DNA of 63,792 nt, filler included, from Chlamydiales bacterium (GTDB taxonomy: Bacteria > Chlamydiota > Chlamydiia > Chlamydiales > JACRBE01): assembly GCA_016213235.1 (NCBI GenBank). It is 6 parts of 6 records of this genome, joined end to end, with 100 filler letters (N's around TTAATTAATTAA, not from the genome) between each part and the next. Parts side by side here need not be neighbours in the genome. Positions count along the whole stretch, not along the records: positions 7,021 to 37,096 come from JACRBE010000025.1; 5 more parts are not named here. One strand, given 5' to 3'. The notes beneath the pieces are model-generated. The model worked only from the letters and a program-made list of their open reading frames with translations, was not told the DNA's origin and made no database searches. The position numbers and the translations under genes are program-made. The first letter of the stretch is position 1. The number at the start of each line of letters is the position of its first letter. This document shows positions 32,112-35,100 of this stretch, piece by piece.

Positions 32112-35100
32112 ATGAAGAAGCAAATTATGAAAGAAAAAGGGCAGCAAAATCAACCAGAGCTTTTATCACAAATTACAAATGATATCAATAATGAGAACTT
32201 GTCTCTAGCAGAGCAAACACTTACTGTTGTAAAGCGAAATGGGCAGATCGTTCCTTTTCATCGAGAGCGCATTATGAAAGCAATAGAACTTGCTTTTCGT
32301 GATATAAGGGTAGATGACAATGACGTCTCCTTACCTCAAGAACTTATCGAAACAATCCACGATCTTACTCTTAAAGTAACAAAACAAGTCTTATCTCTTG
32401 GGCAACGAGGTGTTTCCATTACGGTAGAAGGAATACAAGATATTGTAGAAATCACCCTGATGAAGAACGGTCATCATGATGTAGCAAGAGGCTATATTAT
32501 TTACAGAGACAAACACAAAGCAGCAAGAGAAAGTGCTATTTCTCAGCTCAAAATTTATCGTCATGATGGAACTACTCAGGTGCGTTTCAATCCGATGAAA
32601 ATCTCTTCTTCTCTCGAGCGGGTATTTAGATCTTCGCATAATTTATTAGATGAATACACTCCTATAGAGCTGGTGCAAACTGTAAACCAGTTAACAGAAA
32701 AAGTAGTACAATCGGCACTAGAATATTCTAAAAAAGAAGAGCTGCACATTCATCATGTACAGGACATAATCGAACAATCACTCATGAAAGATGGTTTATT
32801 TACCGAAGCAAAAGAGTACATCCTATATCGAGCATCAAAAGGACAACAAGTAACTATTGCTGTAAAAAAAGCAGCATCATCCCATAAGAAATTTTTGGTA
32901 CAAACAGAAGAGGGCGCTACACGTTTTATTTCAGAAAATGAGATTTATAAAAAAATCGAGCATGCTTGTATTAATGTTGCAGAAGTATCTGCCAAAGAAG
33001 TATTTAAAAGCGCTATTCTCAATTTTTATGAAGGCATTAAAGAGAAAGAAATTGATATAGCATGCATCATGGCTGCCAGAGCAAAAGTAGAAAAGGAACC
33101 TGCCTATTCAAAAGTAACCGCTCGCCTGCTACTAGATGTAGTATATCGTGAAGCAATGGAAATATCTTCCTTAGATCCTGCACTAGAAGAACATCACAAA
33201 GATTACTTCAAAAAGTACATTCGTATGGGAATCAATTATGCTAGGCTCTCTCCAAAGCTACTTGAATATGATTTGGATGTTTTAGCAGAAGCGTTAAAAT
33301 TAGAGCGCGATGATCAATTTACCTATCTAGGTTTGCAAACTCTTTATGATCGATATTTTATTCATCATCAAGAACGACGACTGGAAACTCCTCAAATCTT
33401 TTTCATGCGTGTTGCAATGGGTCTTGCATTAAACGAAGATGACAAAAATAAAAGAGCTGTTGAGTTTTATGATGTATTATCTGAATTTTATTTTATGTCT
33501 GGTACTCCAACACTATTTAACTCCGGCACTAACCACTCTCAGTTATCTTCTTGCTATCTATCTACTGTCATGGATGACTTATCTCATATTTTCAAAATTA
33601 TCTCCGATGACGCGCAGTTATCAAAATGGGCAGGCGGCCTTGGAAATGACTGGACCAATGTTAGAGCAACAGGATCTGTAATTAAAGGGACTAATGGAAG
33701 AAGCCAGGGTGTAATTCCTTTCTTAAAAGTTGCAAATGATACTGCAGTAGCGGTGAACCAATGTTTTGCTCCTGAAACGCTTCTCTATACATCTAAAGGA
33801 ATACGTCCTATTGCTGATGTGAAAATAGGAGATCTTGTTCTTGGTATTGGCGGAACTTACCGTGAAGTAACAGAAAAATTTGTTTACAATCAGTTCGATC
33901 CTATGGTTGAAATCAAGGTCAAACATTCCATTGATCCTATTGTTGTGACAGCAGGACACCCTTTTTATGCGATTAAAAATGTACCATTAGAGCAATCTAT
34001 TGATAGAACAATGGAGTGGCTTGATAAAGGAAAAATTGAATGTGCATGGGTAGAAGCTAAAGACTTGCATGAGGGTGATTATGTTGCACAAGTCGTACCT
34101 ACCGAAATTGTTGCTGTGGAAGAATTTACTGAAGAAGATGCACATCTTTATGGTATTTTACTCGGAGCTGGTCACTTAAGCAAACAAGGATATGAGTGGG
34201 GAGTTTCTGGCAATCCGCAAAATGATACTCATCTTACATTTGTTCGTGCATATCTTACAAAACGTGGTATCCATTTCTGGGAAACCGGTCGTGGTGAAAC
34301 TTACTCGCAAATTCGCTGGTCATCGGGTATTGGTATTGCCAGAGATGGTACTACAGGTCAATTTGCAGGAAGTGACGGGTCTTCTTTACCATTTACTTAT
34401 GATGATATTTATGATGCAAAACACAATAAACATATTGCTCCACGTTTATCACACTTACCACGTCCACATACACTTGCTATGATACAAGGGTTAGTGGAGA
34501 CAGATGGTAATGTATCTAGAGACAAAGAAGTTTCATTTTGTAATACATCAAAAGCACTTGTTGAAGGGATGAGATATCAATTACTGCGTCTTGGTATTCC
34601 AACTGCAGGCAATTGTAGAGTGCGTCAAAATGCCCATGTTGGGAAGAACTATGATGGGTCTACCATTCATTTCAATGGTGAAACTACCTATGATTTGCGC
34701 ATTCCAGCAACAAAAGAACTCGCTACCATGATTGGTTGCAAACCTCTTACAAAATACAACTGGCTCACCATTGGCAATTTCATCTTTAGCCGCGTGAAAA
34801 AAGTATGTGACACTAAAGTCAGATCTATTGTTTGCGATCTTAAAGTAGAAGGGGCAAAATCTTACATGACTACTTCTGCTCTTGCCAGCAATGGTGGTAA
34901 ACGCAAAGGAGCATTATGCTCTTATCTAGAGACTTGGCATTTAGATATCGAAGATTTTCTAGAGCTTAGAAAAAACACTGGTGATGAGAGAAGAAGAACA
35001 CACGATATGAATACAGCAAACTGGATCCCAGATTTGTTTATGAAACGTGTGGAAGAAAATGGACATTGGACACTATTTAGCCCAAGCGATACCTCTGATT

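Follow-up and report, generated by a model that had tools for sequence, protein, structure and literature searches.

Introduction

The class 1 LAGLIDADG inteins PI-PfuI (from the Pyrococcus furiosus ribonucleotide reductase, RNR; 1dq3), PI-SceI (1ef0, 1vde) and TliVMA (7qsu) combine a HINT domain with a nested double-motif endonuclease. The same architecture is found in the element reported here, a 377-residue intein in NrdA, the large subunit of class I RNR, encoded on a 63,792-nucleotide stretch of DNA (the window) from a Chlamydiales bacterium (NCBI GenBank assembly GCA_016213235.1; genome G000). Like these inteins, it has Cys1, the Thr-x-x-His of block B, the Asp of block F and an Asn at its end, and it is inserted in frame into an essential enzyme, at a conserved position for which close relatives have intein-less alleles. 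Unlike them, it has Gly at +1, where the C-extein begins, and the branched (thio)ester intermediate of classes 1-3 therefore cannot form. All three classes pass the N-extein to the side chain of the +1 residue, and Gly has none. A Cys, Ser or Thr at +1 is the rule by which inteins are defined, genomes are searched for them and insertion sites for protein engineering are selected; an intein is worded as 'preceding a nucleophile' in a passage of PMC5784728, and the three classes are laid out in the relevant part of PMC4031507.

Bacterial intein-like (BIL) domains have no homing endonuclease and occur in variable, non-essential and often secreted host proteins, and the proposal that type A members ligate by aminolysis reportedly goes back to Dassa 2004 and Aranko 2013. 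The NrdA intein resembles A-type BIL domains (Clostridium thermocellum BIL, 2lwy) in Cys1, a C-terminal His-Asn and the lack of a +1 nucleophile, its family reading HN/GG (a slash marks the splice junction) and the window copy Ser-Asn; unlike them, it bears a LAGLIDADG domain, resides in the conserved host NrdA and has every genetic hallmark of an intein. Attack of an amine on the thioester has been proposed for type A domains, which have His-Asn and no +1 nucleophile (passages in PMC4031507 and PMC7664689), and in the account of PMC4031507 they are the only HINT group for which ligation by this route is proposed.

A LAGLIDADG-3 intein has been described at amino acids 442-800 of the class I NrdA of the proteobacterium Azotobacter (Robson et al. 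2015, PMC4465626), in a passage that does not discuss the +1 residue. The proteobacterial same-site inteins reported below start at residues 423-449. Our literature search, which had most subscription journals outside its coverage, found no publication on a natural Gly+1 intein or on a chlamydial NrdA intein, and survey supplements may list the site.

Anatomy and class of the NrdA intein

An earlier note on this DNA had described a 377-residue element running from Cys1 to Ser-Asn and followed by Gly, with a Thr-x-x-His in block B and an Asp in block F, and each part of that anatomy was confirmed. The features of the intein, all on the + strand, are as follows.

33762..34892, +, intein of 377 aa, HINT plus nested double-motif LAGLIDADG domain, NrdA residues 551-927 (Pfam, alignment, AlphaFold2 model, Foldseek)
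33762..33764, +, Cys1 codon TGT, the N-terminal nucleophile (invariant in 30/30; 63/64 divergent relatives)
33948..33959, +, block B, Thr63-Ala-Gly-His66 (invariant in 30; Thr 60/64, His 64/64)
34146..34175, +, LAGLIDADG motif 1 (LYGILLGAGH), Asp136 changed to Ala (alignment of 30)
34473..34511, +, LAGLIDADG motif 2 (...GLVETDGN), Asp248 kept (alignment of 30)
34836..34838, +, block F position 4, Asp359 (invariant in 30; 64/64)
34887..34892, +, Ser376-Asn377 (AGC 34887-34889, AAT 34890-34892; sequence and alignments)
34893..34895, +, Gly+1 (GGT), first C-extein residue (sequence and family alignments)

The C-terminus thus reads ...ALA-Ser-Asn and then Gly, with codons AGC AAT GGT. Among Pfam models, LAGLIDADG_3 matched the intein at 31.8 bits against a cut-off of 22.5 bits, and three HINT models, including Hint_2 and Intein_splicing, matched the insert below their own cut-offs. 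An AlphaFold2 model of the intein, built on 30 relatives, had a predicted local distance difference test score of 86.3, and a Foldseek search with this model returned the intein homing endonucleases PI-SceI (E 9e-19), TliVMA (template modelling score, TM, 0.65), PhoVMA and PI-PfuI as the best PDB entries. Across the solved class 1 inteins named above, E values ran from 9e-19 to 5e-14 and TM scores up to 0.67, at a sequence identity of only 12-18%. The best PDB sequence match to the N-terminal part of the intein was 2lwy, with a phmmer E of 0.11 over residues 2-76, which is not significant.

With blocks named as in PMC4031507, the intein has the class 1 features Cys1, block B Thr-x-x-His, Asn377 (G:7), a HINT fold and an in-frame insertion with intein-less alleles; it departs from class 1 at the penultimate His (G:6), a common but not obligatory residue that is here Ser376, and at +1, which is Gly. 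It does not belong to class 2, in which residue 1 is Ala and the nucleophile at +1 makes the first attack itself, as it has Cys1 and Gly+1. Class 3 had been excluded in the earlier note on the same grounds found here: B:12 is Phe68 and not Trp, F:4 is Asp359 and not Cys, the WCT triplet of Trp B:12, Cys F:4 and Thr G:5 is absent and Cys1, which class 3 inteins lack as a nucleophile, is present. The accompanying claim that canonical class 1-3 chemistry is unable to ligate these exteins also held, Gly being without a side-chain nucleophile.

The insertion is exact and Gly+1 is real

Across loop 2, all five intein-less relatives examined, among them a genome of the same genus (G168) and two of the same family, read AVAVNQGGKRKGA (pattern ...AVAVNQGGKR[KR]GA...), with nothing added or changed. 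The insertion is exact, between Gln and Gly of loop 2, and its precise excision would restore NQ/GGKRKGA as had been claimed from the window alone. Because 5/5 intein-less alleles read NQGGKR, the mature loop must be Gln-Gly. Shifted intein boundaries were considered and rejected, as none of them both places a Cys, Ser or Thr at +1 and gives back the NQGG of the intein-less alleles.

Logan contigs of run X1 spanned 33600-34679 and 34720-35100 with 0 differences from the window, AGC-AAT-GGT included and with no Cys, Ser or Thr at +1; X1 is a groundwater metagenome and probably the source sample, which makes it a second assembly and not an independent sample. Runs X4 and X5 gave short pieces only, of 90-95% likeness, from other organisms' relatives. 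An assembly error at Gly+1 is ruled out by this second assembly together with the family-wide conservation described next.

Gly+1 is a trait of the same-site family

Among the 400 genomes of the phylum that were scored, 54 had the intein. Every carrier belonged to the order of the window organism, in six families (with G000 excluded, f1 1/4, f3 5/23, f7 14/69, f10 30/90, f11 2/5 and f22 1/1), and the intein was not found in the 29 genomes of family f4. All 30 loci of the order, window included, read NQ/CF...N/GGKRKGA, and 29/30 have His before Asn. The best 120 database proteins showed the same junction, except for five that were misplaced or missed by the search pattern.

Beyond the phylum, a scan with one genome per prokaryote species (GTDB) gave 392 stretches that encode a relative. 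Among the best 80 of these, 78 were resolved and 78/78 read HN/GGKR. The species genomes carrying it include members of Pseudomonadota (Thiothrix, Thiolinea, Usitatibacter, Burkholderiales, Lysobacter, Rudaea) and one Thermomicrobiales metagenome-assembled genome (MAG), and three of the carriers are cultured strains (Thiolinea disciformis DSM 14473, Fulvimonas soli DSM 14263 and Thiofilum flexile DSM 14609). A library of representatives at 50% identity gave 1247 matches at E <= 0.001. Near-full-length matches numbered 184 among 270 proteins, and in the 167 same-site inteins that were resolved, with identity down to ~30%, the +1 residue was Gly in 156 and Ser in 11; Gln at -1 and the terminal Asn were present in 167/167 and the penultimate His in 164/167. 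These relatives are non-independent samples and many of the genomes are draft MAGs. Gly+1 is a family trait, neither an error nor a recent decay, and the conservation at NQ/GGKR that the earlier note could only propose for checking is seen at the order loci, the species loci and the library inteins alike.

Phylum labels changed twice on the intein tree and once on the extein tree (97 loci), so inheritance was mostly within the phylum and horizontal transfer between phyla was rejected as an explanation; spread of the intein thus appears to have been mostly within phyla. The identity correlation was weak (r = 0.39) and by itself proves nothing.

Two further arrangements were observed among the relatives. 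The same-site relative P0175 starts with Ser1 (NQ/SFTGDT) and ends HN/GSKRKG, an oxyester variant of the Gly+1 arrangement. In P0104, P0113, P0166, P0182, P0203 and P0247 the loop 2 intein is accompanied by another, which begins at the active-site Cys of QLSSC/LSSC, and the precursors reach 1500-2300 aa.

Ser+1 relatives

Most of the Ser+1 inteins lie in glutaredoxin-fused NrdA proteins of uncultured organisms (P0172 and relatives). They are homologous to the window intein at ~30-35% identity, occupy the same Gln/Gly site and have the same catalytic residues; unlike the Gly+1 inteins, they can splice canonically. In a set of 120 glutaredoxin-fused NrdA, all 22 intein-bearing members read NQ[intein]SGKRNGS, while the 96 without an intein at the site read QGGG (41), QGG[KR] (35) or QSGK (20), two proteins being unresolved. 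Since these same-site Ser+1 relatives exist, the lineage appears to include canonical splicers and to be a true splicing intein lineage. By these sequences some RNRs accept Ser at this position of loop 2, yet Gly is retained in the chlamydial and proteobacterial hosts.

On a tree of 64 same-site inteins (midpoint root, many weak branches), the Ser+1 members formed two clades nested among Gly+1 members, for which 2 changes are needed, and Gly+1 occurred in both halves of the tree. No intein column separated Ser+1 from Gly+1 members among these 64 (a distinguishing column being one shared by >=9/11 of the Ser type and <=15% of the Gly type), a comparison of low power with only two Ser clades. 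In the intein-less glutaredoxin-fused proteins P0286-P0385, loop 2 is not of one length and does not always open with the same residue (QGGGKR, QGGKR, QSGKR); alleles with QSGKR may be native variants, or they may be what Ser+1 inteins left behind when they were lost.

Selection on the intein and the need for an active RNR

Over the 64 divergent same-site inteins the catalytic residues are close to invariant: Cys1 63/64, Thr63 60/64, His66 64/64, Asp359 64/64, His376 61/64 and Asn377 64/64. The ratio of non-synonymous to synonymous substitution (dN/dS) was 0.034-0.18 in 50 of 52 close pairs with an intein identity of 80-99.5%, two being left out with saturated dS. The HINT and endonuclease parts gave similar values, and the 300 flanking extein codons gave 0.012-0.23. 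The intein is under purifying selection.

These data bear on the third of the outcomes that the earlier note had offered, that the enzyme tolerates the insertion. The precursor would then be active with the intein kept in loop 2, perhaps as a domesticated regulatory domain. Loop 2 of RNR is a surface loop, and the intein termini are adjacent in the fold; length and sequence are also unusually well kept, the endonuclease part included. If nothing were cut, however, the near-invariance of exactly the junction-breaking residues would be unexplained, Cys1, His66, Asp359 and Asn377 being kept in at least 63 of the 64 divergent relatives, and the place of loop 2 is the dimer interface, with the specificity site on one side and the catalytic site on the other. 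We therefore disfavor this outcome and give it very little probability.

The intein-bearing nrdA is the sole PF02867 match in G000 (80.9% complete), in the chlamydial genomes G099 and G253, which are single-contig (closed), and in Thiolinea disciformis DSM 14473 and Thiofilum flexile DSM 14609. The class III model NRDD had no match in these five genomes, sole-RNR status being assigned with these two Pfam models. The check for a second RNR proposed earlier thus found none in G000, at its 80.9% completeness, nor in the two closed chlamydial genomes; Fulvimonas soli does have a second RNR. Because carriers with a sole RNR live, two of them in pure culture, the precursor must yield active enzyme.

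In Thiofilum flexile (locus L115, G403:C1:26627-30472), the only RNR large-subunit gene is a 1731-aa frame. Its barrel match comes in three pieces, so this nrdA contains another insert in addition to the Gly+1 intein. Genus g56 has two single-contig genomes (G132:C1:1149201-1151948 and G393:C1:602039-604744) whose sole nrdA is interrupted by TGA/TAG stops and shifts of frame, both within the intein and within the exteins. The interruptions may stem from assembly errors, or the gene may be a true pseudogene of an obligate intracellular lineage. We rejected them as a sign of dispensability: the exteins are broken too, no other RNR was found, and sequencing errors in single-contig assemblies are as likely as pseudogenes, which makes the two loci uninformative.

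A proposed route to mature NrdA

Our best reading, to which we give somewhat better than an even chance, is that the intein is removed and the exteins are ligated when the alpha-amine of Gly+1 attacks the thioester formed at Cys1. Cys1 would first undergo an N-S acyl shift, giving a thioester at Gln-Cys1. The terminal Asn377 would then cyclise and release the C-extein with a free Gly alpha-amine, which would attack the thioester (aminolysis) and form a native Gln-Gly bond. The folded RNR barrel would likely keep the amine positioned near the thioester, and the ligated junction peptide in spliced NrdA would read VANDTAVAVNQGGK. By our own reasoning, aminolysis would be favored by Gly being the least hindered amine and by exteins that are barrel halves, able to fold around a loop insertion and thereby hold the ends together.

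A substitute nucleophile was looked for downstream, and no conserved one was found: the nearest Cys, Ser or Thr lies at +6 to +18, and 6 of the 156 Gly+1 hosts have none within +20. With no side chain on Gly and no conserved downstream Cys, Ser or Thr, the alpha-amine is the only general nucleophile left. Ligation through another C-extein side chain (Lys+3 or Cys+9), a small-molecule thiol or a host factor would be a different solution, and the chlamydial hosts do have both of these residues. Neither residue is conserved among Gly+1 hosts, though, some of which have Val at +3 (GGVRKG), and a link through a side chain would not restore the native backbone. Lys+3 and Cys+9 were rejected as candidates, and we regard a helper of any of these kinds as highly doubtful.

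Several points weigh against the aminolysis route. Mutation of +1 to a non-nucleophile blocks splicing in the class 1 inteins that have been studied. Among the 64 inteins no residue specific to the Gly+1 members was found as a candidate base for the amine, and in the window copy Asn cyclisation would go without the help of a penultimate His. Sole-RNR status was assigned with two Pfam models and mostly in draft genomes, and the completeness of G000 leaves room for a second RNR in this organism. Type A BIL domains also give more cleavage than spliced product in the account of PMC4031507, and a cleavage-dominated outcome would be costly because RNR is essential.

The main rival takes that cleavage at face value: hydrolysis or thiolysis of the N-terminal thioester and C-terminal Asn cyclisation would occur with no ligation, and the NrdA halves would stay non-covalently joined as a nicked but active barrel. 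The nick would sit between Gln and Gly-Gly-Lys-Arg of loop 2, a loop that carries specificity information, which speaks against such an enzyme. The conserved Cys1, His66, Asp359 and Asn377 are equally required for pure double cleavage, and BIL domains and +1 mutants yield mainly cleavage products in the relevant passages of PMC4031507 and PMC7664689. A two-chain class I RNR large subunit also has a precedent in Aeromonas phage Aeh1, whose split nrdA (nrdA-a/nrdA-b) is reported as still functional in a passage of PMC3653736; there the division is in the DNA and is due to a free-standing endonuclease gene, not to protein self-cleavage. Loop 2, however, is equally strictly conserved in intein-bearing and intein-less alleles, as expected if the mature loop is identical, and the two kinds of allele coexist in one genus, which is easier if both give the same protein. 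On balance we consider a two-chain enzyme unlikely, though clearly less so than the other alternatives, and ligation by the Gly alpha-amine remains the reading we prefer.

Peculiarities of the window copy

The lack of a penultimate His had been presented in the earlier note as part of the puzzle. It stands for this copy, which has Ser376, and fails as an oddity of the family, since 164/167 relatives keep His; Ser376 is unique to the window copy among the 167. In this copy Asn377 cyclisation would have to run without that residue. Splicing by inteins with no penultimate His has been recorded, as titles cited in PMC4031507 indicate.

The window copy is also unusual in LAGLIDADG motif 1, where the Asp136 position is Asp in 28 of the 30 order loci, Glu in 1 and Ala only in the window. 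The acidic residue closing each LAGLIDADG motif has a metal-binding, catalytic role. A double-motif endonuclease has one such residue per motif; the window copy has Ala136 in the first and keeps Asp248 in the second, so its homing endonuclease is likely inactive. Conservation of the endonuclease elsewhere, the patchy distribution of the intein and its absence from a same-genus genome together point to homing in the family.

These changes could also indicate that this particular copy is impaired, a decaying intein in an organism that relies on an RNR in the unassembled 19% of its genome. His376Ser is unique among the 167 relatives, Asp136Ala is unique among the 30, and G000 is only 80.9% complete, all of which would fit decay. 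The ORF (open reading frame) is nevertheless intact over 1446 codons, and the copy has one private change at an otherwise invariant column (His376Ser), no more than its relatives have. Motif 1 serves homing and not splicing, closed relatives have no second RNR, and splicing without the penultimate His is documented in the titles already mentioned. We consider impairment of this copy improbable.

The nrdA locus and its exteins

The remaining features of the locus, all on the + strand, are as follows.

32020..32035, +, NrdR-box-like palindrome CTACAATATATAGTGG, upstream of nrdA (sequence reading)
32112..36452, +, nrdA ORF, 1446-aa precursor (ORF and translation, Pfam, NCBIfam)
32112..33761, +, N-extein, 550 aa, C-terminus ...AVAVNQ with Gln in RNR loop 2 (translation, alignment with relatives)
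34893..36452, +, C-extein, 519 aa plus stop, start GGKRKGALCSYLETWH (translation, intein-less alleles)
36471..37096, +, nrdB, 5' part, cut by the contig end (ORF, contig boundary)

Outside the intein, nrdA had been called intact, and this was upheld: the 1446-codon ORF is uninterrupted and the translated exteins contain QLSSC, NLCTE, TTYY and the C-terminal CESC. Pfam places ATP cones, the all-alpha domain (Ribonuc_red_lgN) and a barrel split by the intein, with Ribonuc_red_lgC matching at 621 bits in two stretches that flank the 377-residue insert. The NCBIfam model PRK12365 matches at 1557 bits, above its cut-off. NrdA thus has the barrel, the all-alpha domain, the ATP cones, the catalytic Cys/Asn/Glu, the Tyr-Tyr and the Cys pair of a class I RNR large subunit.

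The NrdR box and the adjacent nrdB of the earlier note were recovered in part. The palindrome is present at 32020-32035 and is a candidate NrdR box by its likeness to the consensus; a NrdR gene is encoded on G000:C23 (160.8 bits, above cut-off). An nrdB lies directly 3' of nrdA, but only part of it is available, as the contig ends at 37096. The partial NrdB has Phe four residues past the ExxH His (EEAIHTHTF), at the position of the class Ia radical Tyr; this motif presumably fits a class Ic (Mn/Fe) enzyme as in Chlamydia.

The window consists of MAG contigs joined by paired 44-N spacers (6921-7020, 37097-37196, 49637-49736, 59505-59604 and 62103-62202). Positions 7021-37096 correspond to G000:C6:1-30076, and ORFs that enter the N runs (nrdB, 36471-37148) are truncated by contig ends.

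Significance

A large, conserved, natural Gly+1 family in an essential enzyme would break the +1 rule, and surveys that demand a +1 nucleophile would miss it. If the enzyme were instead two-chain, it would represent a new way to build a class I RNR, cut at the specificity loop. If the exteins are ligated by the Gly alpha-amine, aminolysis, so far proposed only for BIL domains, would be efficient enough for housekeeping use, and it could offer traceless ligation at Gly junctions.

We put at even odds the broader proposition that these elements make up a fourth mechanistic class of inteins: mobile and endonuclease-bearing, without a +1 side-chain nucleophile, joining their exteins through the Gly alpha-amine, which would attack the Cys1 thioester directly. 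Such a class would mature the sole RNR in hundreds of species of bacteria, ranging from environmental chlamydiae to relatives of Thiothrix and to Xanthomonadales, and for this lineage Ser+1 would be an option and not a requirement.

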